A stretch of DNA of 64,000 nt from Candidatus Nomurabacteria bacterium (GTDB lineage Bacteria > Patescibacteriota > Minisyncoccia > Phycocordibacterales > SBAW01): positions 92,864 to 156,863 of the forward strand of contig CALRFF010000001.1 in NCBI GenBank assembly GCA_943356495.1, written 5' to 3'. The notes beneath the pieces were generated by a model. It searched no databases and had not been told where the DNA came from. It saw nothing but the letters and a program-made list of their open reading frames with translations. Shown here in pieces: positions 16,305 through 59,812 of the stretch. A program made the translations under genes and the position numbers. The first letter of the stretch is position 1, and the number at the start of each line of letters is the position of its first letter.

Positions 16305-16320
16305 GCTAAAATTTTAGCAT

Positions 16321-17097
16321 ATGAAACGCGGTGTCTTGGTGGCGCTTTTACTTATGCCGTCGGTTGCCTTTGGCGCCGGTTTTGCCAAACAATCGCTTTT
16401 TTTGTCGCGTCAATCGGTCACCGAGGGCGAGACGGTGCAGCTGCATGCGGTGCTTGCCAACGAAGCGGCGGCGGCATTTACCGGCCAAATACTCTTTAAC
16501 GACAGCGGTACAAAAATAGGCGCGGTACCCGTAACCCTTGCGTCCGGAGAAGGTACCGTGGTGTCGGTGTCCTGGAAACCGCTTGCGGGGTCGCACCCTA
16601 TAACCGCCGAACTTACAGACTCGGGCGGCGCAGTGGTGGAAACATTAAAGGAAACGTTTACCATCGCCGCAAAACCAAAACCGGTAAGTAGCGGCGGGTC
16701 CGGCGCGGCGGTTATCGGGTCCTCTCAGGGTATCCAAAGCGGCATCGGCAACGTATCGCCCGAAGTTGCCGGCGTTATGGCGCCGGTCTTTACGTTGGTA
16801 GACGGCGCACGCAGTAGCATTGCCGATGTGCTCGACGCGCAACTCACCGGCACTAAAGCCGCTATCGGCCCTTCGGCCGGCAACCCGGGACAGGTCCTTT
16901 CCGCCGAAGCTACAAAAAACGCCGCAAGCAACCCTATGGGCGCATTGTGGTTTATCCTGCAGACGCTCTACTTTTATCTACTGACTATCCTGCGGTTTAT
17001 TGTGGGTTCGGCGGGGGTCTTTTACCCGCTTGTGGCTGTCGCCTTTTTGTACTTTTTGTGGAGGATGTTCCGTCGGTTTAGACGCCCGAGCTACTAG
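16321..17097 (+). CDS. hypothetical secreted protein with C-terminal membrane anchor
   Basis: Signal peptide MKRGVLVALLLMPSVAFGAG, beta-rich Ig-like middle, C-terminal hydrophobic helix. Confidence 0.5.
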   Translation: MKRGVLVALLLMPSVAFGAGFAKQSLFLSRQSVTEGETVQLHAVLANEAAAAFTGQILFNDSGTKIGAVPVTLASGEGTVVSVSWKPLAGSHPITAELTDSGGAVVETLKETFTIAAKPKPVSSGGSGAAVIGSSQGIQSGIGNVSPEVAGVMAPVFTLVDGARSSIADVLDAQLTGTKAAIGPSAGNPGQVLSAEATKNAASNPMGALWFILQTLYFYLLTILRFIVGSAGVFYPLVAVAFLYFLWRMFRRFRRPSY

Positions 17098-21012: not shown

Positions 21013-22080
21013 CTAGAATTTACCGATTGAGTCGGCGTCTTTTTCTTTTTGTTTTTTCTCTTTTTCGGCCTTCTCATCCATGACCTTCGTATCCGCGTCT
21101 TTTTGCTCCTGCCCGTTGTGCTTCTTGTCGTCGTTGTATTCCATATATATCTTTAAGATAGTGATAGGGATAATGCTCGACCATAGCAAAGCGTAGCAGA
21201 GCTCGTATGAACCCAAGCTGAAGCGTACGTATCTAGGGGTTATAGGTAGTAGAGAGCGAGTTAGACGGCACATTGCCGTGCTCGGCCGAGCTATGCACCA
21301 TATCGGCGGGGATGATAAGAGTCACTGCCCCGGGCGCTACCGGCGTAACGGTAAAAGAGTAGTTTCTCCCGTCCATCGGCGCGATGGTCTGCACATTGGA
21401 AATAATGGCATTAGTAACGGACACATCCCCGCTGGAAAAGTCATCCACCGCGACCGTACTGTTAAGCGTTACGGTAAACGCGCCACTGACCGAGGTCGGC
21501 AACGGATCGGGCGCGAGCGCTAAGTGAGGCTGGAGCGAATCGTACTCTACGCTATGTTGGGCCGCGGTATTGCCCGCGCCGTCAATGTCATGCACTTCGT
21601 TTGCATCTATGCTGACCGTTACCACATCATTGTCGGTGGGTGTTACAAAAAAACTGTACACCGACTCACTAACCGCAAACAAGCCGCTGATAAACCCGCG
21701 CACCACCGACAAACTCGATTGGGTAAAGTCGATAACGCTGCGCGAAAAGGTAATAGTAAACGGTATAGGCGACTGAGCGGTCGGGCTCGAGGCGCTTGAA
21801 GTAAGCGTCGCTACAACGGTCGAGTGTATAAACGGCAAGAAAGAAAATCCGTCGAACGCAAACCCGCCCCCGCCCGGCGGGGCCGGACTTTCCAGCTCGG
21901 TGGTTACTTTGTACTCTTTGCCGTCGCTCCAATACTGGTACGACTAGGTGGGCGAAGAGTTGCAGTCCTGCGCGGGGTCGCGCGGCATTGTTTCGGTAAA
22001 GCGCGAGGCCCAGTTAAAGTCGGTACCGTCGGGTATCCAGTTTGCTCCGGTGTTTCCGCAGTCGCTCACCCAGTCGGTCG
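21013..22080 (-). pseudogene. degraded Ig-like (Big) domain surface protein gene: two in-frame TAG stops plus a frameshift
   Basis: ORF 21233..21838 encodes Ig-like beta-rich sequence. Protein-like sequence continues upstream in the same frame through TAGs at about 21945 and about 22082 (PTDWVSDCGNTGANW...SSPT*SYQYWSDGKEYKVTTELESPAPPGGGG). It continues downstream in a shifted frame (21013..21273, KE-rich tail). There is no signal peptide or SD at the annotated Met. Confidence 0.4.
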
Positions 22081-24368: not shown

Positions 24369-25826
24369 TTACTTTCCCAAATCGAGCACTTCGTCGATGC
24401 GGATTTTTTCTACAAAGTCGGGCACGTGCGAGACCAGTATCATCGGCCCTTCAAAGTTGCTTAACGCCTCGGCAATAACCGGCAAGTGGCGAAAGTTAAT
24501 ATGGTTCGTCGGTTCGTCGAGTATCAGGAGCCCCGGTTTAAGTAGCACCAAACGGGCAAAGGCTACCAAGCCTTTTTGGCCTTCGGAAAGCGTCCCGATT
24601 TTAGAATGGAAGATTTCCCCACTCAGTAAAAATCCTGACGCGACTTTGCGGACATCCTCCTCTATCGGGCGGTACACCACCGCCGCAAGTTCTTGGTACA
24701 CCGTCTTATTAAAGTCGAGGTTTGAGAAGTCCTGCCGATAGTAGCCGATGCGAACGCCGTCGCTGAGAGTGGCGCCTTTGGCCGTGCCCTCGGCAAGCGA
24801 TTGCAGGAGCGTTGTCTTGCCGATGCCGTTGGGGCCCGCAAGAAGCAGGTGGTCGCCTTTGCGCAGGGACACCTTTACTTTGCGCTGCACGGCCTTATGC
24901 TTTTGTACCACCGCAAGCGACGTGATATTTAAAATTTCCCCCACCAAGCCGTCTTGGAATGGGATACGGAATGAACGTATCGCTTTGTCCTCTTTGCGGA
25001 CGTCTACCTTTTCTTCCTCAAGTTCGGCGGCCTTTTCGCGCATGCGCTTGGCAACCATGCGCATTTGGCCGCCCTTGTTGGCAAAAAAGTTCGCCTTGTC
25101 TTTGTTTTCCTGTATCTCTTTGGCAAGCAGGGCATTTTTGCGGTTTTCCTTTTCTATACGGGCGGAAATTTCCGCCACTACGTCAAAGTAGTTGCCCACA
25201 TACTGCTCGACCTTATGCGTATGTACATCAAGGTACAAGACGCCCTGCGTAAACGCATTTAAAAACTCGGCGTCGTGGGAAATGACGATAAGCGTCTTTT
25301 TGTACTCGACCAAAAACTTGGTTAGATGCGCAATACCCTCTTTGTCGAGGTTGTTGGTCGGCTCGTCGAGTAACAGAAGATCCGGGTCTTGTATAAGCGC
25401 CTGCGCCAAAAGCAGCCGCGCCTGCTGCCCGCCGGAAAAAGTCCCTATAGTACGGTCATGCGGCGCCGCCAAGTTAACCACCTCGAGTACTGCATCTATC
25501 TTGGGGTCGATATTGTATACCTTTTTGGTAAACGCTTTTTCAAAAAACTCACGCACCGTAAGCGTCATATCCTCGCGCGGTATAACCTGTCGCGCGGTCG
25601 CTACACTAAGGCCATGCGCCATAATTATTTTGCCGTCCTCGGGGTGGTAGGTACCGGTCATGAGACCAAAAATAGTGCTCTTCCCCGCGCCATTTTGGCC
25701 CATAAAGGTTATCTTGGTGCCGCGGCGCACCGAAAAATCCACCTCATGGAGGATCGGTTTTTTGACTCCGAAGTCAAAAGAGACACGTTCAAAACGCACT
25801 ATTACTTCGCCTCGCTGCATCAACAC
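24369..25826 (-). CDS. ABC-F family ATPase (tandem ABC domains, no TMD)
   Basis: Two Walker A/signature sets (GQNGAGKSTIFG ... LSGGQQARLLLAQAL ... GPNGIGKTTLL ... LSEGQKGLVAFARL). 485 aa, soluble. Confidence 0.85.
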   Translation of the reverse strand: MLMQRGEVIVRFERVSFDFGVKKPILHEVDFSVRRGTKITFMGQNGAGKSTIFGLMTGTYHPEDGKIIMAHGLSVATARQVIPREDMTLTVREFFEKAFTKKVYNIDPKIDAVLEVVNLAAPHDRTIGTFSGGQQARLLLAQALIQDPDLLLLDEPTNNLDKEGIAHLTKFLVEYKKTLIVISHDAEFLNAFTQGVLYLDVHTHKVEQYVGNYFDVVAEISARIEKENRKNALLAKEIQENKDKANFFANKGGQMRMVAKRMREKAAELEEEKVDVRKEDKAIRSFRIPFQDGLVGEILNITSLAVVQKHKAVQRKVKVSLRKGDHLLLAGPNGIGKTTLLQSLAEGTAKGATLSDGVRIGYYRQDFSNLDFNKTVYQELAAVVYRPIEEDVRKVASGFLLSGEIFHSKIGTLSEGQKGLVAFARLVLLKPGLLILDEPTNHINFRHLPVIAEALSNFEGPMILVSHVPDFVEKIRIDEVLDLGK

Positions 25827-42335: not shown

Positions 42336-42896
42336 CTAGAGCTTGGTCGCCCCCGGACAGAAGGAGAAGCCCAGGTTCTTGCCCGAGTAGATGCTGTTAA
42401 CCTGGCTCGGTATGCTTACCCAATAGCGCAAATTGCACGCCTGAAGCCCCGATAGGCCCAGCTTCGCAACCAATACCTGTTCTGCATGCTTGCGCGTGTC
42501 GGCAACCGGCTCTTTTAAAAGAGAAACGATAAAGCTCTGATCCACAGAGGTATATACGATGCTGAACTCCGGAAAGCTGTCGGTAGCGGTGGTTTGCCCT
42601 GCAAGATAGTAGTGTCCGGCATTGTTCGGGTCAGGAATCGTAGCGGCATCTTTAAGAAAATCCTTTACCGTGATGGTGCCGCCGAGCTCGGAGGCTACCT
42701 CAAACATGCCAGGCTCCTGTGCTCCAGTTCCTGGTGTTACCGAAACGCTCCCTCCGCTAGGAATATACGAGGTGCCATCGGCATTGTATGCAGGGGTAGG
42801 AGTCGGTGCCGAGGATGACCACAAAAAAAAGGCTGCGGCCAAACATACCCCTGCCGCCACCACAACCCCTATCGCGATTATCAGAGCTCGTTGCAT
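42336..42896 (-). CDS. hypothetical membrane-anchored secreted protein
   Basis: N-terminal TM/signal (ALIIAIGVVVAAGVCLAAAFFLW) then a Thr/Ser/Gly-rich soluble region. Confidence 0.5.
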   Translation of the reverse strand: MQRALIIAIGVVVAAGVCLAAAFFLWSSSAPTPTPAYNADGTSYIPSGGSVSVTPGTGAQEPGMFEVASELGGTITVKDFLKDAATIPDPNNAGHYYLAGQTTATDSFPEFSIVYTSVDQSFIVSLLKEPVADTRKHAEQVLVAKLGLSGLQACNLRYWVSIPSQVNSIYSGKNLGFSFCPGATKL

Positions 42897-42911: not shown

Positions 42912-43988
42912 TCAATATCCGCACGCTCCCGCAGTGCTCCAATTGCGGATGCCGTTCGGGGTGTTATTAAGCAGCTGCTGCGCCGTATACGTATTGCACT
43001 CGATATTTTGCGCCGCGCTCACACACTGCGCATACAATTCCTGGTCCGCCACGGTCGCCTTGTAGTTCTTACCGTTAAAGGCCTGCGGGCAATTGAGCTT
43101 TTGCCCGTTCGGGCACGAAACCGGGTTCACCGAAATGTTTATTTGATACATGCCCCACGAAAAAGATCTGTTATCGGCCGTAACGTCCGACTGGCTTGCC
43201 CGGCCGGGGTCGCAACTACTTTCTCTCTGGGCGATACAGGACATGGCCGCTGCATTGTTTCCCCATGCATTAGAGAGAGCTCCCGGCGAACAGTCACCTT
43301 TACCAGTTTGGCTGGGGGCGGAGAGTACCGCGTCGCTGACTACGTTGTCATTTTCATCAAGGCATTTCCCGCTGACAACCCGCAGATCTGAACCCGCATT
43401 ATCAGGGCATACCAAGCTGTTACTGGACGATTGCTGAAGCGTGGGCGCGCCTGTTAATTGTCCTTGCGCGTTGTAGCAGTAGCCGTCTGTCCCCGCCGTA
43501 CCACTTTGGCATCCGTAGGAAGCGCTATTGGTGGCCGGAGTAATTGTCGACTTTTGCACACCCGATTGCTGAAACAGCTGCCCTATGTTTTTGTCCATCG
43601 GCCGCACCAAGCCGATGCAGCTAAATGTGGTCCAGCTTTGATACCCCGGAGCAAGTGTTTTTAGCACCGTCTGGACAATAAGCCAGCCGGCGATTGCGAT
43701 ACAAAACCCGATAAGCACCGAAGTAAATATTTTATGCGCTTTTTCTATCTGGCTCGTATTTTCGCGATTGCTAAAGTACAGCCACCCCGCGTAAGAAAAC
43801 ATAATAGCCGCGAGCGGGATGGAAAGCCCGATAGCAAAGTTGATGATGTTTTGTATCAACTGGTCGAAGGTGCACAAGTTGCAGTCGACGGCACCTTGGC
43901 ACGGCACTAGCTCTGCGGCTAGAGCAACCATCGGGACCCCTACCCATACAACACCGGCTGCCGCATACAAAAAAGCACGGAGCTTCAT
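42912..43988 (-). CDS. T4SS-pilin-like (VirB2/TrbC-like) N-terminal domain fused to a C-terminal lytic transglycosylase (SLT/lysozyme-like) domain
   Basis: Signal peptide, CxxxxCxxC then two TM helices (IINFAIGLSIPLAAIMFSYAGWLYF ... VLIGFCIAIAGWLIVQTVL). C-terminal Cys-rich domain with AQRESSCDP and SFSWGMYQINI (ES...GLMQ-like LT motifs). Confidence 0.55.
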   Translation of the reverse strand: MKLRAFLYAAAGVVWVGVPMVALAAELVPCQGAVDCNLCTFDQLIQNIINFAIGLSIPLAAIMFSYAGWLYFSNRENTSQIEKAHKIFTSVLIGFCIAIAGWLIVQTVLKTLAPGYQSWTTFSCIGLVRPMDKNIGQLFQQSGVQKSTITPATNSASYGCQSGTAGTDGYCYNAQGQLTGAPTLQQSSSNSLVCPDNAGSDLRVVSGKCLDENDNVVSDAVLSAPSQTGKGDCSPGALSNAWGNNAAAMSCIAQRESSCDPGRASQSDVTADNRSFSWGMYQINISVNPVSCPNGQKLNCPQAFNGKNYKATVADQELYAQCVSAAQNIECNTYTAQQLLNNTPNGIRNWSTAGACGY

Positions 43989-51429: not shown

Positions 51430-51504
51430 GGCCACGTGGCGAAGAAGCAACGCGTCGGTCTGCAAAACCGATATGCGAGGGTGCGAATCCCTCCGTGGCC
51501 TCCA
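51430..51504 (+). tRNA. tRNA-Cys (anticodon GCA), non-canonical T-loop
   Basis: Acceptor GGCCACG/CGTGGCC, anticodon loop CTGCAAA, encoded CCA. T-loop TGCGAAT has G at position 55. D-stem is only 3 bp. Confidence 0.6.
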
Positions 51505-51594
51505 GCCGGGGTGATGGAATTGGTAGACATACGGGACTTAAAATCCCGAGAGGTCCTGAAAACCCTCATGAGAGTTCGAGTCTCTCCTCCGGCA
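51505..51594 (+). tRNA. tRNA-Leu (anticodon TAA), long variable arm
   Basis: Begins immediately after the Cys CCA. Acceptor GCCGGGG/CTCCGGC, anticodon loop CTTAAAA, T-arm GAGAG-TTCGAGT-CTCTC. Confidence 0.8.
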
Positions 51595-51600
51595 CATAGT

Positions 51601-52476
51601 ATGGATTTTTTATACGGCCAGATTACTGACAACCCGCCGCCGCTCGTGGTGGCGCCGGAAAGTTGGCCCGAGTACGGACGATTGGCCGACCCGCTCGGTT
51701 TTTGTGCGCGCGAGGAGGTAGGCACGCACCCGCGCGGCGTGCGCTGGAGCTTTTGGCCGCTTGCGTTCGAGGAGTATGTAAGCGACACGGAACCGAACCT
51801 TGCCGACTCCGCGCAGGGCGAGCTCGCCCGCAACCGCGTGTTTATTTGGAAGCGTATTACCCGCGCCGCTATACCAGAAGGTTGGCGCGAAGTTTCAAAA
51901 AAACCGTGGCGCATCGACGGCTATCACGACCTTGGTACCGGCGGCGACTACACTGCAGCGTGGCACAAAAACGCGCGGCGCGAAGCGCGCTTGTGGCGCG
52001 AGGAGCACGCCGCGCGGTACGACATCGTTGAAATTTCTCTCGAGGAGTTTATCGGCGCGTACCGCAAAAGCATGACGGTTAAAAAAGCCGGCGCAGACTT
52101 GCTGTCGGTGCTCGTACGCATGCACGCGCTCCCCGCCCAAAAGCACATTGCGTTGTGGGGTGTGCGCAACAAGCAGACGGGCAGGATTATCGCGGGTACC
52201 GCTACGATTACCTCGCCCACGCATAAAAGCTCGGTGCGCTATTGTCCGTTTATGCTCCCCGAGGCGCGGCACTGCTACGCATCGATAGGGCTCGTTGACC
52301 ATTGGTTTGCGCATGCGCAAAAAAACGGCACACAGTATTTGCTGTTTACTTGTTTTTGGCAGCCGGGCGACCCCAAGGGGTGGCAGGGCCCCGCGGAGTT
52401 TAAGTCGCACTTCGGGTTGCAGTATGTCGCCTACCCGCCGGAGCTTACGCGGTTTGTAAGAGGAAAAATCTTTTAG
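51601..52476 (+). CDS. hypothetical protein, possible FemAB-family (aminoacyl-tRNA-dependent aminoacyltransferase)/GNAT-fold protein, high-GC
   Basis: 291 aa. C-terminus GWQGPAEFKSHFGLQYVAYPPE loosely resembles the FemAB C-terminal FKKGFGG...Y motif. Start trimmed to MDFLYG (the ORF-track 5' extension covers the two tRNAs). Confidence 0.35.
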   Translation: MDFLYGQITDNPPPLVVAPESWPEYGRLADPLGFCAREEVGTHPRGVRWSFWPLAFEEYVSDTEPNLADSAQGELARNRVFIWKRITRAAIPEGWREVSKKPWRIDGYHDLGTGGDYTAAWHKNARREARLWREEHAARYDIVEISLEEFIGAYRKSMTVKKAGADLLSVLVRMHALPAQKHIALWGVRNKQTGRIIAGTATITSPTHKSSVRYCPFMLPEARHCYASIGLVDHWFAHAQKNGTQYLLFTCFWQPGDPKGWQGPAEFKSHFGLQYVAYPPELTRFVRGKIF

Positions 52477-52549
52477 TGCGCCCGCCTGGATTCGAACCAG
52501 GGACCATCTCCTTAAGAGGGAGTTGCTCTACCAACTGAGCTACGGGCGC
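52477..52549 (-). tRNA. tRNA-Lys (anticodon CTT)
   Basis: Acceptor GCGCCCG/CGGGCGC, D-loop AGCTCAGTTGGTAGAGC, anticodon loop CTCTTAA, T-arm CCTGG-TTCGAAT-CCAGG. Abuts the stop of the preceding gene. Confidence 0.8.
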
Positions 52550-52604
52550 AAATTACAAAAGGATAATAGCATTAATTATTGTTTCATCATAGAATTTTGA
52601 TATC

Positions 52605-52688
52605 GCTGGGGTGGCGGAATTGGTATACGCATCAGCCTTAGGAGCTGACGGGAGCAATCCCTTGGAGGTTCGAGTCCTCTCCCCAGCA
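52605..52688 (+). tRNA. tRNA-Leu (anticodon TAG), long variable arm
   Basis: Acceptor GCTGGGG/CCCCAGC, anticodon loop CTTAGGA, T-arm GAGG-TTCGAGT-CCTC. Confidence 0.85.
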
Positions 52689-52720
52689 CAAAAAACCTTT
52701 ATATTGCAAGGTATTTTACC

Positions 52721-53030: not shown

Positions 53031-54380
53031 ATGCATCCTCTGGTACGGCGCCTTATGGCGCAAGTGGTGGAGCTCACTCGGTATCGCCGAGCGAATCCAC
53101 CTCCTCCCCCGCCCCCACCCGGGGCGGGCGGAGCAGCCACGATACCGCCGTCACCTGTGCCGCGCGGTCGCACCACTGTCTTTGCTATCGTGGTTGCCTT
53201 GTTTGTCGCCGGCGCCATCTTGCTGATGGTGCCGTTGGCTATCGTAATGAACTTGCTCGCGATCATAGCGGCAGCCCTCGTTGCGATCTATCTTGTCTTC
53301 TACGGTCTGGCGCTCAACCAGATCCTCTTCACCACGATGAGGGAAGGTACGGGCCGCTTCGTAATGGACGGCGGACCGGACGGAGCGTTCAACCATTTGC
53401 TCTGGGCCTGGAAAGGTCACTACAGCAACGACCCGCGGATGCCGTGGTTTGACCCGCATGCACCCGCGTGGGAGATCCTCGATCTGAAGCTGACCACCAA
53501 CCTCTGGCTGCATCAACATCCGAAGGTAATGCCCTCGAACTATCCGCCCGGTTCTGTCTGGCGGCTGTTCGAGAAAGTCGGCCTGTACTGGTTTGGATTT
53601 CCCCCGCGGGCAATCCACCGCTACATGTTCGAGTGGACCGAGGAGAAAATCGACGCCGAGGGCAAGCACATGCCGTGGCACCGCAAGGAGCCGACGGACT
53701 TCATCTTCCTGATGGACAACGTCTATTGGATGAAGCTTGAAGGCGCCGAGACAAACGGCAACATCCCGCTCGACGTCGACTACCTGCTTACGGTGGGCGT
53801 CAACAACCCCATCAAGGCGCGTTTCGGCCAGACCAACTGGCTCACGAGCCTTGGCGCGGACTCCAACAACGCCGCAAAGCGTTGGATAGGTGACAACACC
53901 TTTCAGGCAATCGCCAAAGAGCAAGGCACTACCGGCACGACCAGTGGTTTTGTCGTAGAAATCGCCGAGCTCAATGACAACCTGCCGACCCACCACGCCA
54001 CTATCGGCGCGACGGAACTTATCGGCGCGACGGTAAAAGGTGCTTCGCTCCAGAAGATCGACCCGGCAGACTCTGCAAACCGGGAAGAGATTCTGAAGGC
54101 GACCACCGCTCCGGTGATTGCGGAGCTGAACGCGCAGGCGACACGAACTACCGCCGACGCAGAAGCCTACCGCATCAGAACTGTCTATGGCGAATCGGAA
54201 GGCAACACCGACCGTATGCGCCAAAAGCAATGGGAGGCCATGCGCGACGCAAAAGGCACGGTCTTCTGGATTCCGGAAGTCATTGCCAACTTTGCGCAGC
54301 GCTTTGGCGCACCTCAACCGCAGGGGCCTCAACAGCCTCCGCAAAATCCTCAACCGGGGGCGCCGCCAGCGGGCCCCTAA
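53031..54380 (+). CDS. membrane protein with polyproline N-terminus, two TM helices and a divergent SPFH/band-7-like domain with a Trp-rich insertion; Gln/Pro-rich C-terminal tail
   Basis: PPPPPPPP run. TM helices (VFAIVVALFVAGAILLMVPLAIV...LLAIIAAALVAIYLVFYGL). REGTGRFVM resembles the SPFH start motif. C-terminal region ATRTTADAEAYRIRTVYGESEGN...KGTVFWIP resembles the SPFH C-terminal helix/tail. 449 aa. Confidence 0.45.
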   Translation: MHPLVRRLMAQVVELTRYRRANPPPPPPPPGAGGAATIPPSPVPRGRTTVFAIVVALFVAGAILLMVPLAIVMNLLAIIAAALVAIYLVFYGLALNQILFTTMREGTGRFVMDGGPDGAFNHLLWAWKGHYSNDPRMPWFDPHAPAWEILDLKLTTNLWLHQHPKVMPSNYPPGSVWRLFEKVGLYWFGFPPRAIHRYMFEWTEEKIDAEGKHMPWHRKEPTDFIFLMDNVYWMKLEGAETNGNIPLDVDYLLTVGVNNPIKARFGQTNWLTSLGADSNNAAKRWIGDNTFQAIAKEQGTTGTTSGFVVEIAELNDNLPTHHATIGATELIGATVKGASLQKIDPADSANREEILKATTAPVIAELNAQATRTTADAEAYRIRTVYGESEGNTDRMRQKQWEAMRDAKGTVFWIPEVIANFAQRFGAPQPQGPQQPPQNPQPGAPPAGP

Positions 54381-54390
54381 GGAGTAAGCC

Positions 54391-55173
54391 ATGACTTCTA
54401 CGGTGTTACTGGTCCTACTGCTCGTTATTGCGGTAGGCGGCCTCAGTGTTCAGTGGTACTTCGCGCGAGCGGGTGCCACACGCACGAGGCCGCTCGGCGG
54501 ATTTCTTACCGTCGAGCAAATCAAAGGGATTGCCATCAGCGGCGTCGTCACGGTCGTCGTGCTGCTGATGTTTAACGCCTTCCTGCCAAACGTCTCCGAC
54601 GCTTACGCGGCGCGCGGCGGGCCGCAGTTCCTGCTCATCGTCGGTGTGGTGTTTATCTGTCTGGCTTACTTTCTTGCGCCCAACCCGGGCATGCGAAAGT
54701 GGCTGGTCAGAAGCCTCGCCGTCCTGATGGGAATCGTGGTCCTTTCCTCGCTCGTGCCGGCCGTCTTTGTCGGGAAGCCCCTGACCGAGGCGGAAGTCCG
54801 GCTCGAGCAGGAAAAGAAGGCGCTCGACGCAAAGTACAAGCTCGCGTCGAGTGCCGCGACTCTCTCGCTTGCCGATGCGCAAGACTGCACCGGCAGGGCC
54901 AGCCCCACGATTACGGTCGGCACAGAGCCGCTCGAGGTAAACAAGGGCGGCCAGTGCAGGGTGGTGCTGCAGTATCCGGACGACGTCGTCGCCTGCTATC
55001 TCGTTAAGAGCGAGGGCGACACGGAGTGGCAGGGCCCTGTCGGGGCCACCTGTCCGGACCGGAAAAATATTACTCCGGTCGACGTCGAGTACATCAAGGC
55101 GGTAACGCCCTTCAAGGCGCGGGTGGTGCTTTACCCGCGCGCACCGACCCAGTGGGTCCGGTGGAAGAGCTAA
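54391..55173 (+). CDS. 4-TM membrane protein with C-terminal Cys-containing soluble domain (possible NfeD-like partner of the SPFH-like protein)
   Basis: Strong SD AAGGAG. Four hydrophobic helices. C-terminal beta-rich region with 4 Cys (QDCTGRASP...GGQCRVVLQYPDDVVACYLV...GATCPDRK). Confidence 0.5.
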   Translation: MTSTVLLVLLLVIAVGGLSVQWYFARAGATRTRPLGGFLTVEQIKGIAISGVVTVVVLLMFNAFLPNVSDAYAARGGPQFLLIVGVVFICLAYFLAPNPGMRKWLVRSLAVLMGIVVLSSLVPAVFVGKPLTEAEVRLEQEKKALDAKYKLASSAATLSLADAQDCTGRASPTITVGTEPLEVNKGGQCRVVLQYPDDVVACYLVKSEGDTEWQGPVGATCPDRKNITPVDVEYIKAVTPFKARVVLYPRAPTQWVRWKS

Positions 55174-55192: not shown

Positions 55193-55287
55193 GCGGCTCC
55201 CTACCAAGGGAGCCGCTTTTCTTTTTACATATAAAATTTAGAGACAAAAAAAACCGCCACCCTTTTGGGGTTGGCGGGGTTTTTTAG
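55193..55287. terminator. two tandem hairpin terminators between convergent genes, the second bidirectional
   Basis: GCGGCTCCCTACCAAGGGAGCCGC + TTTTCTTTTT, then AAAAAAAACCGCCACCCTTTTGGGGTTGGCGGGGTTTTTT. Confidence 0.6.
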
Positions 55288-55300
55288 TCGCTCGGGCTTG

Positions 55301-55585
55301 TCAGTACGCCGGCTGGTACGCAACTGCCGGTTGATACGCGACTGCCGGTTGGTAGGCGACCGCGGGTTGATAACCGCGCGGCGGTGTCACCGAACCGAGA
55401 CTGCTCGACATGGGCGTCGACATATGCCCCGAGCCCAAGTTGCTCGAGACCGCTCCGGGGCCGCCCACAACACCGAGATTGCTCGAGACATAGCCGGGGT
55501 GCGGCACCGAGCCGATCTCTTCGGCAGACAGCAGCGTCGTACCGGCGAAACCGAGCAGAACTGTAGCGATTGCAAGGTACTTCAT
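55301..55585 (-). CDS. small secreted low-complexity peptide with C-terminal (YQPAVA)4 tandem repeats
   Basis: Signal peptide MKYLAIATVLLGFAGTTLLSA. SSNLG repeats. C-terminus YQPAVAYQPAVAYQPAVAYQPAY encoded by 18-nt tandem DNA repeats (about 55305-55375). SD AAGGGAGGA. Strong promoter upstream. Confidence 0.6.
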   Translation of the reverse strand: MKYLAIATVLLGFAGTTLLSAEEIGSVPHPGYVSSNLGVVGGPGAVSSNLGSGHMSTPMSSSLGSVTPPRGYQPAVAYQPAVAYQPAVAYQPAY

Positions 55586-55617
55586 CGAAGTCCTCCCTTA
55601 GGTTGATCGATACCTCT

Positions 55618-55647
55618 ATTATAGCACAAGAGATGTAGTTTTGTCAA
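55618..55647 (-). promoter_or_regulatory. consensus sigma70 promoter with extended -10 (TTGACA-N18-TGcTATAAT) for the repeat-peptide gene
   Basis: Minus strand reads GTAGTTGACAAAACTACATCTCTTGTGCTATAATAGAGG. Confidence 0.6.
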
Positions 55648-55671: not shown

Positions 55672-55944
55672 TTAAAAACCGTAGGTCGAAACCGGCGTAC
55701 CCACCATAGTGCCTATCAGTTTAACAATCGCCCAAGAAGACGCCATGATAAACATACCCACCAAGCCGTAAAGCATGTGGCGCTTGCCGTCCTCTTTTTT
55801 GCCCGAGCCTTCGTTGGACAAGCCAAACATAAACTCGACTATGCCAAAGACAAACATAAGCGTGCCTACGGCAAACAATAGTCCAAGTATGGGGTTAAGG
55901 ATGTACTGCACCATCCTCCCCGCAAGCGCAGTAAGCTCCTGCAT
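55672..55944 (-). CDS. T4SS-pilin-like (VirB2/TrbC-like) small membrane protein
   Basis: 90 aa, two TM helices separated by a charged loop (FGLSNEGSGKKEDGKRHMLYGLVGMFIMA). Confidence 0.55.
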   Translation of the reverse strand: MQELTALAGRMVQYILNPILGLLFAVGTLMFVFGIVEFMFGLSNEGSGKKEDGKRHMLYGLVGMFIMASSWAIVKLIGTMVGTPVSTYGF

Positions 55945-55953
55945 AGGCGCTTA

Positions 55954-56298
55954 TCAGCGCGGCACCGGTACGCCCGGGCTTTGTACCGGAGCGTTTGCAG
56001 GCACTCCAAGCGCGCTTTGCGCCAAGGAGATAATGCCCCAGACAGACACCATAACAAACAGCGAGACGAGGCCCGCTATCATGATGTTCTTGCCTTCAGC
56101 GTGACCTTTGCCCGAAGAGCGGATGTATTTGATAAGACCGAAAAAGAATACGATAAGCGCTACCGTAATAAGTATCGGGATAAGCATGGCCACCAAGCGG
56201 CCGATGGCGCCCATGAGCGTCATGAGCGGCTGGAGCGTTTGAGCCGAGGCTACAAGCGGGAGCGCGAACAGGGCGACGGTAAACGTGAGTTTTTTCAT
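55954..56298 (-). CDS. T4SS-pilin-like small protein with signal peptide (copy 1 of a tandem duplicate)
   Basis: MKKLTFTVALFALPLVASAQT signal peptide, then two-helix pilin-like core (GLIKYIRSSGKGHAEGKNIMIAGLVSLFVMVSVWGII). Confidence 0.6.
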   Translation of the reverse strand: MKKLTFTVALFALPLVASAQTLQPLMTLMGAIGRLVAMLIPILITVALIVFFFGLIKYIRSSGKGHAEGKNIMIAGLVSLFVMVSVWGIISLAQSALGVPANAPVQSPGVPVPR

Positions 56299-56318
56299 AT
56301 AAAATTAAATAATACTGA

Positions 56319-56720
56319 CTAATTAATACAACCCCTATGGCAACGGGCTACGTGCGGTGGGGATCGGATAGGCGCCACCGTAGTAGTTAGGTACGCCCGG
56401 GCTTTGTACCGGAGCGTTTGCAGGCACTCCAAGCGCGCTTTGCGCCAAGGAGATAATGCCCCACACCACACCATAACAAACAGCGAGACGAGGCCCGCTA
56501 TCATGATGTTTTTACCTTCGGCATGGCCCTTACCGGAAGAGCGGATGTATTTGATAAGACCGAAAAAGAATACGATAAGCGCTACCGTAATAAGTATCGG
56601 GATAAGCATCGCTACCAAACGACCAATGGCGTCCATAAGCGTCATGAGCGGTTGCAACGTCTGGGCCGAGGCGATAAGCGGGAGCGCGAACAGTGCGGCA
56701 GTAAACGTGAGTTTTTTCAT
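56319..56720 (-). pseudogene. tandem duplicate of the 55954..56298 pilin-like gene carrying a 1-nt deletion frameshift (or sequencing error)
   Basis: First about 84 codons are near-identical to copy 1. The DNA differs at about 56446-56455 (CACCACACC vs GACAGACACC), shifting the frame into an unrelated Arg/Cys-rich tail. Confidence 0.5.
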
Positions 56721-56803
56721 GAAGTTGATATAAAACGGGTGCGCCCTAACTATAGCAGAGAACTGGGGGTGTCAAAATAACCCTGTGGACAGGGCCGTGG
56801 TGT

Positions 56804-57046
56804 CTAATAGAGATTAAGCGCTTCGCGCATAGTGGCCAGTATCCCCCACACGGATACGAGGACAAACATCGCTACAAGGCCCCAGACAATGAGCTCCTTG
56901 CCCTCGGCATGGCCGTGGCTGTCGGAAGACTCGTAGATAAACCGCACCAACCCTATAAAAAAGAATACCAGTGCAATAGCCACCAGTAGCGGAATAATCG
57001 TGTTGATAAGGCCGATAAACTTGCCTACTAAGGCGGCGAAGCTCAT
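56804..57046 (-). CDS. T4SS-pilin-like small membrane protein
   Basis: 80 aa. Two helices with charged loop (ESSDSHGHAEGKELIVWGLVAMFVLVSVWGI). Confidence 0.55.
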   Translation of the reverse strand: MSFAALVGKFIGLINTIIPLLVAIALVFFFIGLVRFIYESSDSHGHAEGKELIVWGLVAMFVLVSVWGILATMREALNLY

Positions 57047-57047
57047 G

Positions 57048-57491
57048 CTAGCAGTTATTGAGCCCCGGCGTGTTTATGTTGAGATCTTTTATCGTGCTTG
57101 CTATCACCTGCCCCAACAGCCATGCGCCCAAAAATATGGCAATGCCCACAACCGTGTAAAAGAGATTGAGTTTTGCCTTTTCTAACGCGGCGGGGTTGCC
57201 GCGCGCCATCACCAAGCGAAAGCCCGCGTACATAACAAAAAACGTGGCTATCGGTATCCCGAAGAGTATAAGTACGTTAAGGATAGCTTTAATGAGCTGG
57301 CAAAAACTCCCTGTTTTGCCCAGTGGGTTTTGCAGGGCAAAAATAGAGTTGCCGAAGGAGTCTTGGCTTTTTTGGACACCGTAGGCGTCTCCGGAGTTCG
57401 GCCCAAAGACGTCGGTAGCGGCCTGTACCGCAAAGGGAGCCATGGTAAGTAACACCAGAGAAAGTGCGGCAAATAAGAAAATCTTTTTCAT
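57048..57491 (-). CDS. T4SS-pilin-like protein with signal peptide and N-terminal extension
   Basis: Signal peptide MKKIFLFAALSLVLLTMAPFAVQA. Cys, then two TM helices (ILFGIPIATFFVMYAGF ... VVGIAIFLGAWLLGQVI). Confidence 0.55.
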   Translation of the reverse strand: MKKIFLFAALSLVLLTMAPFAVQAATDVFGPNSGDAYGVQKSQDSFGNSIFALQNPLGKTGSFCQLIKAILNVLILFGIPIATFFVMYAGFRLVMARGNPAALEKAKLNLFYTVVGIAIFLGAWLLGQVIASTIKDLNINTPGLNNC

Positions 57492-57494
57492 ATA

Positions 57495-58796
57495 CTACTG
57501 AAAGAAAGCGGCAAACTCCTGCGAGGCATCGTTGACTGCTTGTGACGGGTCGGTCTTGCCGGTTGTTACTGATTCTATCATTGCCTTAAAGATAGTGTCG
57601 GTAGACTCGGTGTTAGGGTCAAACCACCCGCGGGAGATAAGCGCCGATTGCGAAAACACCTGCGCCGCGGCATTGGCCGATGTATCTACCGCTACATCGC
57701 GGCGCACTGCAGGCAGGCCCGTGGCGGCCACCACCTGTTGGACGCCCGCTTGGCTTACCAGTTTTTGGGCAACCACCAACGCCCCGCCGGGGTTAGCCGC
57801 CGTGCGCGACACCCCCAAACCGGTAATGCTGCCGTAGGTCAGCCGCGGTCCGTTGCCCTGCAGTTGCGGCAACAGCGCAACACTAAAGTGCAGGTTGGGG
57901 TTGCGCTTAGTCAGTACCGGCAGCTCGCTGGCAAAACCAAAGTACACGGCCAAATCGCCCGCCACAAACGCTTCGGTCGAGTTGTGCAGGGAGCGGTTCC
58001 AGGTGTAGGAGCTTTTAGAGGGGTTGGCAAACTCGGTATAAAAACGCAGTGCCGACTCGGCGGGGTTGGTGGCAACGCCCGGCGCCGCGGTGCCGAACAC
58101 GCTGGCAAGGTAGCCTTGCTCGTTGCGGCTTACTATCGGGTCCCCCGCCTGCATAAACAGCGCAGACAATATCGCCTTGGCATGCGACACGTTGCCCCAC
58201 GCGCCGAGCGCCACCGCGCTGCGGCGCACGTTCTGCGAAGTATCTATAGAGGTTATTTTTTGCGCCAAGGTTAAGAGCTCGTTCCAGTACACGGGTGCCT
58301 GCGCCACCCCTGCGCCCGCCAACAAATCGCGGTTCCAGTACATGACCAACGGGTCGATCATAAACGGCAACGCCCAGCTGCCTTGGCTGTTTAAAAAGAT
58401 GTTCGCCTCATCGACAAACGAGTTGGTAAAGGTCGACTGTGACACCGAACTGTAGGGTATATTGAGCACTTTGTCGGCAAACGCGCCTATCGACTCTTGG
58501 GTCAGCATAAACAGGTCGGGCCCGCGACCCGCGGCAATGGCATTGATAAGTATCTGCTGGTAGGTGGCCTTGTCGGCCTCAAGATACGTAACGTCCTGAA
58601 AACTCTTATCAGTGGCGCGCAAGTTTTGCAGTACCATGCTCATTTGCTGCTCGTCTGCGGTGCCCCAAATGGTCACCTGCCCGACCGACGTGCTGCCGGT
58701 TACGCCTCCAAAGGCCGCAAACACGCCCACGCCGATAATAGTAAAAACCACAAATGCGGTGGTAACTATTATTTGAAAGGTGCTTATCGACTTCAT
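57495..58796 (-). CDS. extracellular solute-binding protein (ABC transporter SBP, family 1-like)
   Basis: N-terminal TM/signal anchor then a periplasmic-binding-protein-like domain. 433 aa. Confidence 0.75.
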   Translation of the reverse strand: MKSISTFQIIVTTAFVVFTIIGVGVFAAFGGVTGSTSVGQVTIWGTADEQQMSMVLQNLRATDKSFQDVTYLEADKATYQQILINAIAAGRGPDLFMLTQESIGAFADKVLNIPYSSVSQSTFTNSFVDEANIFLNSQGSWALPFMIDPLVMYWNRDLLAGAGVAQAPVYWNELLTLAQKITSIDTSQNVRRSAVALGAWGNVSHAKAILSALFMQAGDPIVSRNEQGYLASVFGTAAPGVATNPAESALRFYTEFANPSKSSYTWNRSLHNSTEAFVAGDLAVYFGFASELPVLTKRNPNLHFSVALLPQLQGNGPRLTYGSITGLGVSRTAANPGGALVVAQKLVSQAGVQQVVAATGLPAVRRDVAVDTSANAAAQVFSQSALISRGWFDPNTESTDTIFKAMIESVTTGKTDPSQAVNDASQEFAAFFQ

Positions 58797-58814: not shown

Positions 58815-59351
58815 TTATGCGAATTTACGAAACAGTAATCCCCAATGGTAGGCGCCTGCGGGTGCAGAGCCCTCGGCGGTAAAACCGGCTTGCTCAAACA
58901 AACTGCTTGCCTGCGCGGCGGTGACTACGTGGTCGGGATGCGGACCCATGCCGCCAAAGGAGTCTTGCCAGTCGATAACCAACACCTGACCGCGGGGCTT
59001 AAGCAAACGCAGGGCCTCGGCGGCAACCGCCGCTTTGTCGTCGGCTGCAAAAAGGCTGTTGGCTATAACTACCACATCAAAGCTCTTGTCGGGCAAGTGC
59101 GTACCACCCACCTTTTCGATATTGCCGGCTACTACCTCGACATTGGTCAAACCCTCGCCAGTGGCAAGATTTTTAAGCCGCGGGAGTAAGTCGCGGTTGG
59201 CGTCTACTGCCCACACAATGCCGGGGGCGCACAACCTTGCCGCAGCGCGGGTAAAAAATCCCGAGCCTGCGTCAAAGTCGGCGACCGTCTGCCCTGGCGT
59301 CAGATGCAACGCCGAAAGGGCCGCCGAAGGGATAAGGAACGAACTTTCCAC
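58815..59351 (-). CDS. class I SAM-dependent methyltransferase
   Basis: SAM motif I VADFDAGSGFF, motif II, post-II region. 178 aa. Confidence 0.75.
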   Translation of the reverse strand: MESSFLIPSAALSALHLTPGQTVADFDAGSGFFTRAAARLCAPGIVWAVDANRDLLPRLKNLATGEGLTNVEVVAGNIEKVGGTHLPDKSFDVVVIANSLFAADDKAAVAAEALRLLKPRGQVLVIDWQDSFGGMGPHPDHVVTAAQASSLFEQAGFTAEGSAPAGAYHWGLLFRKFA

Positions 59352-59550
59352 CCCTTAATTATACATGACGCAAAATGTAGGCTCCCCACACCGAGTACGC
59401 CACGACCGCAAGCAGGGCCAAAGACACTACCCCTAGAGCGTCTTTTTGTTTGCCGGCGTGTTTGCGAATCGTCTCCATACCTCTTATTACGCACGAGTGG
59501 CATGTTTCTTACATGAAAATGCCCCGCACGTAGTGGTGCGGGGCGGCCGG

Positions 59551-59774: not shown

Positions 59775-59809
59775 CAAAAGAAAACCGCCCGCACTTTCGT
59801 GCGGGCGGT
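59775..59809 (-). terminator. rho-independent terminator, copy 1 of a duplicated 33-nt module
   Basis: AAAGAAAACCGCCCGCACTTTCGTGCGGGCGG. On the minus strand the hairpin is followed by TTTTCTTTT. Identical copy at 60293..60328. Confidence 0.6.
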
Positions 59810-59812
59810 CAA

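Follow-up and report, generated by a model that had tools for sequence, protein, structure and literature searches.

Introduction

Arrays of VirB2-like genes have been published for Patescibacteria and are essential in Southlakia epibionticum (PMC10633639, PMC12857230), in which the T4SS locus comprises SEML1_0006-0019 (Wang et al. 2023, PMC10633639). Quinonero-Coronel et al. (2025) catalogued 441 such arrays and found them linked to virB4/T4SS genes in 1,135 of 1,948 assemblies, indicating that the linkage is not universal; the VirB4 proteins of CPR bacteria are related to the MPF-FATA branch of T4SSs (PMC12102498). A T4SS with its pilin array is essential in the sole genetically tractable CPR bacterium, and its role has been described as "completely unknown" (PMC11665869).

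The array described here joins these known ones. Like them, it consists of tandem two-helix proteins (2-11 in the published arrays, which match PF18895/PF04956; five here, recognized by the same HMM) encoded on a CPR chromosome, and its members are sequence-divergent paralogues that share one structure and are not accompanied by a relaxase. It differs in its gene neighborhood, in the constancy of its gene order, and in a pair of nearly identical copies, which are the subject of this report.

Results and Discussion

Layout of the Array and Its Chromosomal Setting

The window is the whole 64,000-nt stretch of DNA that was analysed, and all coordinates refer to it. Five consecutive small genes were confirmed on its minus strand, as listed in the initial annotation (147, 80, 133, 114, and 90 aa). 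The gene p147 (57048-57491) encodes a 147-aa protein in which a signal peptide and an additional segment of approximately 40 aa precede a two-helix hairpin, whereas p80 (56804-57046, 80 aa) and the final array gene, p90 (55672-55944, 90 aa), encode leaderless pilin-like paralogues. Between them lie two A-type genes: copy B (56319-56720), a "long form" that is read as a frameshifted 133-aa ORF, and copy A (55954-56298), a "short form" of 114 aa with the C-terminus ...PGVPVPR. In place of B, a public gene caller put an antisense 76-aa ORF.

Two larger genes on the same strand precede the array, a methyltransferase gene (MT, 58815-59351) and a solute-binding protein gene (SBP, 57495-58796), and the order along the coding strand is MT, SBP, p147, p80, B, A, p90. 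The array is thus located downstream of the SBP and MT genes and not upstream of them, as had been noted earlier. The intergenic gaps from SBP through p90 are 3, 1, 83, 20, and 9 nt; p147 starts 3 nt past the SBP stop codon, p80 starts 1 nt past that of p147, and p90 starts 9 nt past that of copy A.

The window as a whole is housekeeping chromosome, containing genes for UvrABC, TGT, TopA, RelA, ClpB, IF-2, GyrA, and SerRS and 12 tRNAs. Homologues were found in Adler-, Kaiser-, Zambryski-, Nomura-, Taylor-, and Lloydbacteria, and the source of these homologues placed the host, approximately, as a Patescibacteria/Paceibacteria-type genome, in keeping with the CPR-like host suggested at the outset. 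A mobile element (ICE or plasmid) carrying the array was considered and rejected, because relaxase, integrase, and T4SS genes were absent and synteny from gyrA to infB was kept across genera.

The Five Proteins Form One T4SS-Pilin-Like Family

PF18895 (T4SS_pilin) was the best Pfam match for all five proteins, with whole-protein HMM scores of 37.3 (p90), 26.6 (p80), 26.3 (p147), 21.0 (A), and 15.5 bits (B). Relative to the gathering score of 26.6 bits, p90 lies above, p80 is equal, p147 falls 0.3 bits short, and A and B also lie below. The position of A and B below this score is a point against a pilus model. The three sub-threshold proteins were counted in the family on the basis of their profile homology to p80 and p90 and of the PF18895 matches of their homologues; many homologues of copy A carry precomputed matches of this kind. 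The profiles of the four sub-families recognized one another with hhalign probabilities of 96-100% and also in hmmsearch cross-hits, the A-family HMM matched p80 at 1.6e-27, and a 53-nt stretch of p80 DNA was 72% identical to the A/B DNA.

The architecture proposed earlier (an optional signal peptide, two helices, and a charged loop) was borne out by hydropathy and by reading of the sequences. All five proteins, in the size range of approximately 80-150 aa, have a short Lys/Arg/Gly-rich loop between two hydrophobic helices; a Sec-type leader ending in AxA was read in p147, A, and B and is absent from p80 and p90. An AlphaFold2 model of copy A placed helices at residues 3-60 and 66-97 (mean pLDDT 79), and the invariant positions of the A-type family alignment are P41, F51, G54, L55, Y58, M73, G76, L80, F81, V84, S85, G88, and P108. 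These results show that the five genes are a real array of homologous two-helix T4SS-pilin-like (PF18895) paralogues.

The description of these proteins as VirB2/TrbC-like therefore held for PF18895 membership, whereas likeness to the classical VirB2/TrbC proteins was weak. The gathering score of PF04956 (TrbC/VirB2) is 27.9 bits, and p147 and B reached 17.5 and 14.4 bits, respectively. The p147 family aligned with the Agrobacterium VirB2 family at an hhalign probability of 48% (P 1.9e-4) over 62 columns that cover both helices; reversed controls gave less than 1%, and the other sub-families gave less than 4% against VirB2. Matches to NF045849 (Mbov_0395 pilin-like) scored 27.1 (p90, E 2.5e-6), 22.3 (p147, E 7.7e-5), and 21.6 bits (p80), and 16.2 bits for a 358-aa protein encoded elsewhere in the window, with E-values ranging from 2.5e-6 to 1.3e-4; as the cut-off is 40, these matches indicate resemblance and not membership. 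A Foldseek search of the copy A model against the PDB gave no match at E <= 0.001 and no solved VirB2/TraA/TrbC pilin, and returned generic helical hairpins only (chemoreceptors, pore-forming toxins, and ATP synthase subunit c). This result is uninformative because the query was a two-helix hairpin that still included the leader. A search of PDB sequences with an A-type alignment profile gave no significant hit and likewise no solved pilin of this kind, the best hits being chance matches to archaeal pilin-like hydrophobic segments.

A Conserved Cassette with a Methyltransferase and a Binding Protein

MT, the first gene of the cassette, encodes a class I SAM-dependent methyltransferase of 178 aa starting from GTG, and another gene caller placed the start at 59309. 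It matched the Pfam families Methyltransf_11/31/25 (E 1e-14), whereas NCBIfam UbiE/ArsM-like matches were sub-threshold only. Terminator-like hairpins are located upstream of it at 59783-59810 and 59521-59544. SBP encodes a membrane-anchored MalE-like (sugar-type) solute-binding protein of 433 aa, with an N-terminal TM helix at residues 4-34. Among PDB sequences it matched mannooligosaccharide, trehalose/maltose, and maltodextrin binding proteins (4r9f, E 5.9e-10; 1eu8; 1elj; 3quf). Its own Pfam match was a weak one to PF13343, its orthologues have PF13416/PF01547, and the NF007011 MalE alignment covered residues 20-427 at a score far under the cut-off. The homology spans the two-lobe fold of family 1 (MalE-like) binding proteins. 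No ABC permease gene was found in the operon or its flanks, either in the window or in its two closest relatives (L007 and L008), and apart from UvrA the window encodes a single further ABC ATPase, a soluble two-domain protein (24369-25826).

Many genera share both the gene order and the linkage to SBP. Across Paceibacteria the cassette reads methyltransferase, MalE-like binding protein, p147, p80, A-type, p90; of the 69 informative loci, 66 have SBP immediately before the first pilin-like gene, and 53 have MT upstream of SBP. The single operon with both genes that had been proposed is real and deeply conserved. The order p147-p80-A-p90 was fixed and orthologous across 83 loci, with p90 in the last position in most of them, while the number of A-type copies varied from 1 to 3 or more. 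The commonest orders were p147-p80-A-p90 (22 loci), p147-p80-A-A-p90 (11 loci), and p147-p147-p80-A-A-p90 (7 loci). A fixed order of orthologous genes in 83 loci argues for non-redundant parts, and the earlier idea that the paralogues are alternative subunits fits it poorly.

A Conserved Promoter Region of the A-Type Genes

A DnaA-box-like element, TGTCCACAG, is located on the minus strand at 56783-56791, 69 nt before the B start codon, and is a variant of the conserved cTATCCACA. Of the 83 related loci, 52 have the exact 7-mer ATCCACA at the equivalent place, in most cases 67-70 nt ahead of the A-type ATG, whereas outside the arrays it occurred at the chance rate only (0.06 per kb per strand). 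Promoter-like elements before B/A follow on the same strand at 56749-56775, namely TTGACA (56770-56775) and an extended -10 element, TGCTATAGT (56749-56757). In the loci of relatives, TTGnnn-N15-19-TAnnnT followed the conserved motif in 33 of 49 cases, usually 8 nt on and with a 16-nt spacer. A generic promoter scan of the window left the B/A promoter unreported because of its 15-nt spacer, so that conservation is what supports it. We conclude that the A-type genes have their own conserved promoter region with a DnaA-box-like motif.

Homogenization of the A-Type Pair

The duplication of approximately 330 bp reported for the A/B region was recovered by blastn and by a repeat search: A and B align over 332 nt at 91.6% identity with one gap. 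The repeat search resolved two blocks, 56046-56298 versus 56468-56720 (253 nt, 90%, spacing 422) and 55967-56043 versus 56390-56466 (77 nt, 99%, spacing 423). Tandem Repeats Finder left this 422-nt duplication unreported.

The pair had been described as a tandem duplicate, which would imply a recent event in this genome. In such a case A and B would be a recent duplication here, the pairs of the relatives would have arisen independently and recently as well, and there would be no old, converted pair. Two observations agree with this: the very high identity of the pair within each genome, and the varying number of A-type copies among loci. The long/short pair, however, is also present in L007 and L008 in identical order, that is, in three genomes that are approximately 30% apart in protein sequence. 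In all three, the long form with its Gly/Ser/Tyr/Asn-rich tail lies upstream and the short form ending in VPVPR lies downstream, and the identity breaks off sharply at one and the same codon (...PVP|G or R), with unalignable flanks. The members of the L007 and L008 pairs have differing signal peptides, whereas the signal peptides of the long forms are alike across genomes (a small sample). Independent recent duplications are therefore quite unlikely in our estimation.

The degree of identity pointed in the same direction. Within a genome, the cores of the pair were 98% (window), 97% (L007), and 100% (L008) identical, and the best match between genomes reached 68-72%. In L008 the two copies share an identical block of approximately 305 nt between flanks that cannot be aligned. 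The dS of the pair was 0.34 in the window, 0.53 in L007, and 0 in L008, compared with at least 1.1 (saturated) between the window and L007; codon comparisons of L008 with the other genomes contain a one-codon offset (an indel), and only the reading "saturated" was used from them. In the window, stretches of identity are interspersed with stretches of high synonymous divergence, and the clustering of the A/B differences gave P = 1.4e-4 for the two longest identical runs, which also argues against a recent duplication. Identity far higher within than between genomes, tracts with sharp edges, and an alternation of identical with diverged blocks are the marks of concerted evolution, and they show A and B to be a long/short pair of old origin with cores that gene conversion has repeatedly homogenized. 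The differences between A and B comprise 24 synonymous and 4 non-synonymous changes (dN/dS 0.046), which shows that the cores were under strong purifying selection.

A One-Base Deletion in Copy B

Copy B of this assembly contains a one-base deletion in its second helix. The change of repeat spacing from 422 to 423 placed the single-base indel at 56467/56468, where B reads ATGGTGT-GGTGTGGGGC and A reads ATGGTGTCTGTCTGGGGC, so that TCG has become T-G outside any homopolymer run. The initial annotation was right that one base is missing, and its position (56446-56455) was off by approximately 15 nt. With the base restored, B extends over 56335-56720 and encodes 127 aa ending in ...SPGVPNYYGGAYPIPTARSPLP (tail NYYGGAYPIPTARSPLP), with the stop at 56335. 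This frame is open through a tail like that of long forms which, together with the dN/dS of 0.046, indicates that B was functional until recently.

Mechanisms by which a frameshifted gene might remain in use were considered and rejected. Programmed frameshifting or transcriptional slippage was dismissed because neither a slippery heptamer nor a homopolymer is present in GUGUGGUGUGGGG at the deletion and because all homologous long forms are in frame, and phase variation because there is no repeat tract at the site.

The frameshift may also be non-biological, reflecting a minority allele or an error of assembly or consensus calling, and the cell would then have B as the intact 127-aa long form. 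The region is hard to assemble owing to blocks of 74-77 nt that are identical in A and B, and the 74 nt past the deletion are identical to A. The restored frame is open for 44 codons and reaches a typical long-form tail, intact long forms are present in five relatives (L007, L008, P0003, P0006, and P0013), and the low dN/dS indicates selection on B until recently. In another sample, contig coverage breaks off at 56536 and begins again at 56356, so that the deletion site falls in the gap. In contrast, a 260,812-bp contig matches the window with 100% identity, and the deletion, lying outside a homopolymer, is not at a typical site of sequencing error. Searches with A and with restored B found neither intact B nor the 133-aa ORF in a protein collection of approximately 15 billion sequences (5.8 billion clusters), although copy A lies on four large contigs. 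The deletion is known from a single assembly lineage; the contigs of other samples break off within B or in the spacer between B and A. On this evidence a non-biological frameshift or minority allele is a substantial possibility, though less likely than not. If the deletion is biological, B would be a very recent pseudogene in this strain, with A supplying the A-type subunit; the frameshifted B is relevant to this strain only.

Other Genes of the Window and the T4SS Machinery

A 358-aa protein encoded at 42912-43988 on the minus strand combines a signal peptide, a PF18895 hairpin (28.7 bits), and a Cys-rich lysozyme-like (VirB1-like) C-terminal domain, for which SLT_3 (PF18896) gave E 0.0037, below the cut-off; the p147-family HMM matched this protein at E 7.4e-15. 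A possibly associated unit lies downstream of the array on the minus strand (55193-55647). It comprises a sigma-70-like promoter (55618-55647, 12 of 12 consensus positions), the SD sequence AAGGGAGGA, a gene (55301-55585) for a 94-aa secreted protein with YQPAVA repeats (tandem, period 18, 3.6 copies), and a bidirectional terminator (55193-55216). Weak homologues are present at the equivalent position in L007 and L008.

The search for VirB4/VirB6/VirB11 homologues that had been recommended was run within the 64-kb window; among its scanned ORFs of approximately 200 aa or more, there was no VirB4, VirB6, VirB11, VirD4, VirB3, or VirB8. No T4SS machinery genes were present in the approximately 10-kb flanks of the array in L007 and L008. 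VirB4 is listed as present in five of six cassette-bearing relatives, the sixth being a draft genome listed without it (Table S1, PMC12102498).

A Proposed Role for the Cassette

We consider it fairly probable that the locus is a chromosomal copy of a class-wide Paceibacteria operon, in which a methyltransferase and a MalE-like binding protein accompany ordered VirB2-like pilins that make a pilus-like filament or conduit. Given the weak VirB2/TrbC similarity and the generic hairpins returned by Foldseek, pilus formation is what we infer for the array proteins, and the steps of the model rest on analogy with VirB2 and on published work in Saccharibacteria. To our knowledge, no pilus of PF18895-type proteins has been seen in any CPR bacterium. 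Sec would insert the array proteins so that their two ends face outward and the basic loop lies in the cytoplasm. A T4SS of VirB4 type, encoded elsewhere in the genome, may then extract them from the membrane and polymerize them, the product being a pilus-like filament or conduit for host-cell contact. The A-type protein, which is duplicated and separately promoted, is the likely major subunit and as such a target for proteomics or cryo-tomography; p147, p80, and p90 may be minor or initiating subunits.

As far as we know, no characterized T4SS is strictly linked to a sugar-type binding protein, and the hairpin proteins could instead be small membrane partners of SBP, for example, a channel or receptor dock for host-sugar uptake that works without a T4SS. 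This would fit the position of SBP directly upstream in 66 of 69 loci with tight spacing and apparent translational coupling, the lack of ABC permease and T4SS genes nearby, the generic membrane hairpins found by the fold searches (including ATP synthase subunit c), and the one cassette-bearing draft genome listed without VirB4. Set against it are the T4SS pilin family signal (PF18895, NF045849, and weak PF04956), the fusion of a pilin-like hairpin with a lysozyme-like (VirB1-like) domain in the same window, VirB4 in five of six relatives, and homologous arrays inside the essential T4SS locus of S. epibionticum; moreover, no binding-protein-dependent importer with two-helix subunits is known. 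We therefore regard this as unlikely and favor the pilus-like filament or conduit.

A more specific form of the filament model, which we offer as a speculation with little expectation that it is right, is a distinct, class-wide Paceibacteria apparatus in which the VirB2-like filament and the surface-anchored SBP would be functionally coupled and capture or import host carbohydrate, the A-type pair would serve dosage, and DnaA would switch its expression via cTATCCACA. If so, the apparatus would be a pilus-plus-receptor device and not one for DNA or effector export, and DnaA switching would tie pilus production to the replication cycle.

Paceibacteria are the largest CPR class, and their pilin-like genes occur as a fixed, ordered set with SBP and MT, away from virB4; this order and linkage provide concrete candidates for what the apparatus handles. 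Neither the homogenized long/short pair nor the DnaA-box-like promoter element appears in the available portions of the published surveys, and the two are testable features of evolution and regulation.

Comparison with Known Systems

Among the Patescibacteria arrays, the essential one of S. epibionticum lies inside a T4SS cluster, whereas the array described here is not beside virB4 and is linked to SBP and MT. The survey reported a maximum within-array identity of 54% (PMC12102498), compared with 97-98% for the A/B core. A fixed positional order with a conserved internal promoter is not described in the available portions of PMC10633639 and PMC12102498.

With the classical VirB2/TrbC/TraA pilins, the array proteins share small size, a Sec leader in some members, and a hairpin with a short basic loop, with the ends predicted outside and the loop inside (solved VirB2 structures: 8cue, 8exh, and 8fai). 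They differ in their marginal sequence similarity, which hhalign detected for p147 only (48%), and in giving no fold-search match. Classical VirB2 pili belong to diderm systems, whereas the organism described here is thought to be monoderm, and a VirB5-like tip gene was not recognized here. The Mycoplasma ICE family Mbov_0395/MMCAP2_0565 (NF045849) likewise consists of two-helix proteins of approximately 80 aa, from the monoderm MPF-FATA branch; here, however, the scores of 16-27 bits are below the cut-off of 40, and the genes form a core chromosomal operon and not part of an ICE.

Families of VirB2 paralogues in Anaplasma and Bartonella are cited in PMC12102498. The A/B pair resembles systems under concerted evolution in that the paralogues of one genome are far closer to each other than to their orthologues and in the sharp edges of the converted tracts. 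Gene conversion between duplicated bacterial genes is known from tufA/tufB in enterobacteria, pilE/pilS in Neisseria, and the VirB2 paralogues of Anaplasma and Bartonella. As in the tuf genes, conversion in A/B homogenizes the core, in contrast to pilE/pilS, where it creates variation; only the leader and the C-terminal tail of the pair remain distinct.

Architecture and Family Membership of the Array

Five adjacent minus-strand ORFs were present at 55672-57491, as the initial annotation had described, encoding proteins of 147, 80, 133, 114, and 90 aa (p147, p80, B, A, and p90 in coding order). Hydropathy analysis revealed two long hydrophobic helices separated by a short Lys/Arg/Gly-rich loop in all five proteins, and the AlphaFold2 model of A (114 aa) was a helical hairpin (helices 3-60 and 66-97, mean pLDDT 79). 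N-terminal Sec-type leaders ending in AxA were detected in p147, A, and B, and the first residues of p80 and p90, which have no leader, aligned with the mature N-terminus of the other paralogues. The shared architecture claimed earlier (optional leader, two helices, charged loop) is confirmed.

PF18895 (T4SS_pilin) was the top Pfam match for each of the five proteins, in agreement with the family proposed from the first reading. Against a gathering score of 26.6 bits, p90 scored 37.3, p80 26.6, p147 26.3, A 21.0, and B 15.5 bits. Because sub-family profiles made from the orthologues at each array position matched each other strongly (hhalign probability 96-100%, plus HMM cross-hits), the five genes form one family, and the sub-threshold p147, A, and B are assigned to it by transitivity. 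Membership of the five proteins in PF18895 is thus established. Matches to better-known pilins were weak: p147 scored 17.5 bits against PF04956 (TrbC/VirB2), scores with NCBIfam NF045849 (Mycoplasma ICE pilin-like protein) were 16-27 bits, below its cut-off of 40, and the p147 profile matched an Agrobacterium-type VirB2 alignment over both helices with a probability of 48% (P 1.9e-4; reversed-sequence controls <1%). PDB profile and Foldseek searches returned generic hairpins only. Homology to classical VirB2 is plausible.

Conservation of the Cassette

We compared 83 loci, comprising the window, two close relatives (L007 and L008), and 80 species representatives. The A-type homologues came from Patescibacteria labelled Adler-, Kaiser-, Zambryski-, Nomura-, Taylor-, or Lloydbacteria or Paceibacterota. 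On the coding strand, genes for a class I methyltransferase and a membrane-anchored MalE-like solute-binding protein precede the array; the initial annotation was right that they adjoin it, but the array lies downstream of them, not upstream. Of the 69 loci with enough flank, 66 had the binding-protein gene as the immediate upstream neighbour of the first pilin-like gene, and 53 had the methyltransferase. Intergenic distances in the window were 3, 1, 83, 20, and 9 nt, and terminator-like hairpins were located at 59783-59810, upstream of the methyltransferase gene, and at 55193-55216, after the next gene downstream of the array.

Gene order was constant, p147-p80-A-p90 being the most frequent arrangement (22 loci), followed by p147-p80-A-A-p90 (11 loci) and p147-p147-p80-A-A-p90 (7 loci). 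Because of this constancy, the paralogues are positionally orthologous, ancient, and presumably non-redundant; they did not arise as alternatives through recent duplication, and describing them as alternative subunits is too simple.

Just past the array, a minus-strand gene at 55301-55647 encodes a secreted low-complexity protein of 94 aa in which YQPAVA is repeated (3.6 copies, 18-nt period); weak homologues are at the equivalent position in L007 and L008. The gene is served by a perfect TTGACA-N18-TATAAT promoter, and it also has a strong Shine-Dalgarno sequence, which the pilin-like genes lack. Two conserved plus-strand genes (53031-55173) face the array, just past a tRNA cluster (51430-52689), and are syntenic in L007, L008, L039, and L043. 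One product, of 449 aa, has a TM segment and an N-terminus of poly-proline, and its L008 orthologue weakly matches Band_7/SPFH; the other is a 260-aa membrane protein.

An Internal Promoter-Like Element

Between the p80-type and the first A-type gene, the spacer contained cTATCCACA as a conserved element. Of the 83 loci, 52 had the exact 7-mer ATCCACA in this spacer, mostly 67-70 nt ahead of the start codon of the A-type gene; outside the arrays of the compared loci it occurred at the chance rate (0.06 per kb per strand). Eight nucleotides past the element lay TTGnnn-N16-TAnnnT, frequently with a TG extended -10. The window carries, on the minus strand, the one-mismatch variant TGTCCACAG (56783-56791), TTGACA (56770-56775), and TGCTATAGT (56749-56757). 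The element agrees at 8 of 9 positions with TTATCCACA, the textbook DnaA-box consensus, and is in this respect DnaA-box-like. Having their own promoter and being duplicated suggests that A-type genes encode the abundant subunit.

The Long/Short Pair and the State of B

The tandem repeat of about 330 bp noted initially is real. Positions 56046-56298 and 56468-56720 (253 nt, 90% identity) were spaced by 422, and 55967-56043 and 56390-56466 (77 nt, 99% identity) by 423; blastn merged both segments (332 nt, 91.6%, one gap). The shift in spacing places a one-base deletion (TCG to T-G in the A/B alignment) at 56467/56468 in B, the upstream copy; the deletion had been recognized correctly but placed about 15 nt away, at 56446-56455.

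The term duplicate is too simple, as the pair is old and gene-converted, with the same arrangement in two relatives. In both closest relatives, the first gene of the pair is a long form of 129-148 aa whose tail is rich in Gly, Ser, Tyr, and Asn, and the second is a short form of 115 aa that ends in VPVPR; these correspond to B (56319-56720, minus strand) and A (55954-56298, minus strand). Core identity within the pair was 98% in the window, 97% in L007, and 100% in L008, and the best core identity between the three genomes was 68-72%. In the L008 pair, a block of about 305 nt is identical and the sequence on either side of it cannot be aligned; the L007 and window pairs are mosaics of identical and diverged blocks. 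Similarity stops at one common codon in L007 and L008, the long form continuing with Gly and the short form with Arg-stop, and two codons earlier in the window. Synonymous divergence within the pairs was 0.34, 0.53, and 0 (window, L007, L008), and between the window and L007 it was at least 1.1 (saturated). The differences in the window pair were significantly clustered (P = 1.4e-4). The old pair is thus evolving in concert through recurrent gene conversion.

With the base put back, B encodes a 127-aa product that has the tail NYYGGAYPIPTARSPLP, its reading frame stopping at 56335. Restored B is separated from A by 24 synonymous and 4 non-synonymous changes (dN/dS 0.046), and no stop interrupts its frame before a typical long-form tail is reached; B therefore worked as a gene until very recently, or still does, the deletion then being an artefact. 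Contigs from other samples skip the deletion site, stopping at 56536 or 56580 and restarting at 56356, and neither the 133-aa ORF nor intact B was found in the protein collection searched. We consider B probably a real, recent pseudogene; an artefactual frameshift, with B intact in the cell, is appreciably less probable. Programmed frameshifting and phase variation are unlikely because the site is neither a homopolymer nor a slippery sequence and the relatives' homologues are in frame. In the public annotation of the source contig, B is uncalled and a 76-aa ORF antisense to it is given instead (56404-56780, plus strand; L001 9566-9796), an annotation artefact that stems from the frameshift.

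Genomic Context

The window is ordinary chromosome (UvrA/B/C, TGT, TopA, RelA/SpoT, ClpB, IF-2, GyrA, SerRS, ParB, DnaX, and 12 tRNAs) and matches a segment of a 260,812-bp metagenomic contig at 100% identity. A respiratory chain is usually said to be missing from CPR genomes, which makes the oxygen-reducing oxidase here noteworthy: ATP synthase subunit a and both cytochrome bd oxidase subunits are encoded at 1087-1875 (minus strand) and 2908-5273 (plus strand). Predicted secreted or surface proteins with CAP (cysteine-rich secretory) and Ig-like Big_3_5 and Big_12 domains (15390-17097, 21233-21838) may be adhesins in an epibiotic lifestyle. At 51436-52476 (plus strand), the longest ORF (346 aa, no Pfam match) overlaps tRNA-Cys and tRNA-Leu (51430-51595), and the predictions of other gene callers are 291-302 aa long and lie on the opposite strand of the locus, so the true start or strand is not that of the longest ORF.

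Between tRNA-Trp and tRNA-Tyr, a minus-strand gene (42912-43988) encodes a 358-aa secreted protein in which a PF18895 hairpin (28.7 bits) is joined to a Cys-rich C-terminal domain weakly matching lysozyme-like SLT_3 (motif ...ESS...SWGMYQIN). It appears to be a pilin/VirB1-like fusion with a predicted VirB1-like function. The next gene (42336-42896) encodes a 186-aa membrane-anchored protein weakly matching CBM_25.

Proposed Function and Comparison with Known Arrays

Most likely, the hairpin proteins would insert into the membrane with their basic loop facing inward, after which a T4SS encoded elsewhere would build a pilus-like filament or conduit from them; the A-type protein would be the major subunit and the other paralogues minor ones. 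Beyond membrane insertion, these steps, including pilus formation, are what we infer. In the chief alternative on function, the hairpin proteins act with the binding protein, independently of any T4SS. Its support is the near-universal linkage to the binding-protein gene and the lack of nearby machinery genes: the window ORFs scanned contained no VirB4, VirB6, VirB11, or VirD4 domain, the first three being those whose homologues the initial annotation had proposed to look for elsewhere in the genome. The T4SS pilus is preferred because VirB2-like arrays are known from many Patescibacteria (PMC12102498 counts 441, each with 2-11 genes), a predicted pilin series within the T4SS locus is essential in Southlakia epibionticum (PMC10633639; PMC12857230), and VirB4 is listed for five of the six cassette-bearing relatives appearing in Table S1 of PMC12102498. 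In the literature, Paceibacteria virB4 is usually close to dnaA/dnaN.

The array therefore belongs to an already published kind. In the literature searched, we did not find the conserved binding-protein/methyltransferase linkage, the constant paralogue order, the gene-converted pair, or the DnaA-box-like element; these four additions are of moderate interest for CPR biology. The published survey gives 54% as the maximum identity within arrays (PMC12102498), whereas that of the A/B pair is far higher.
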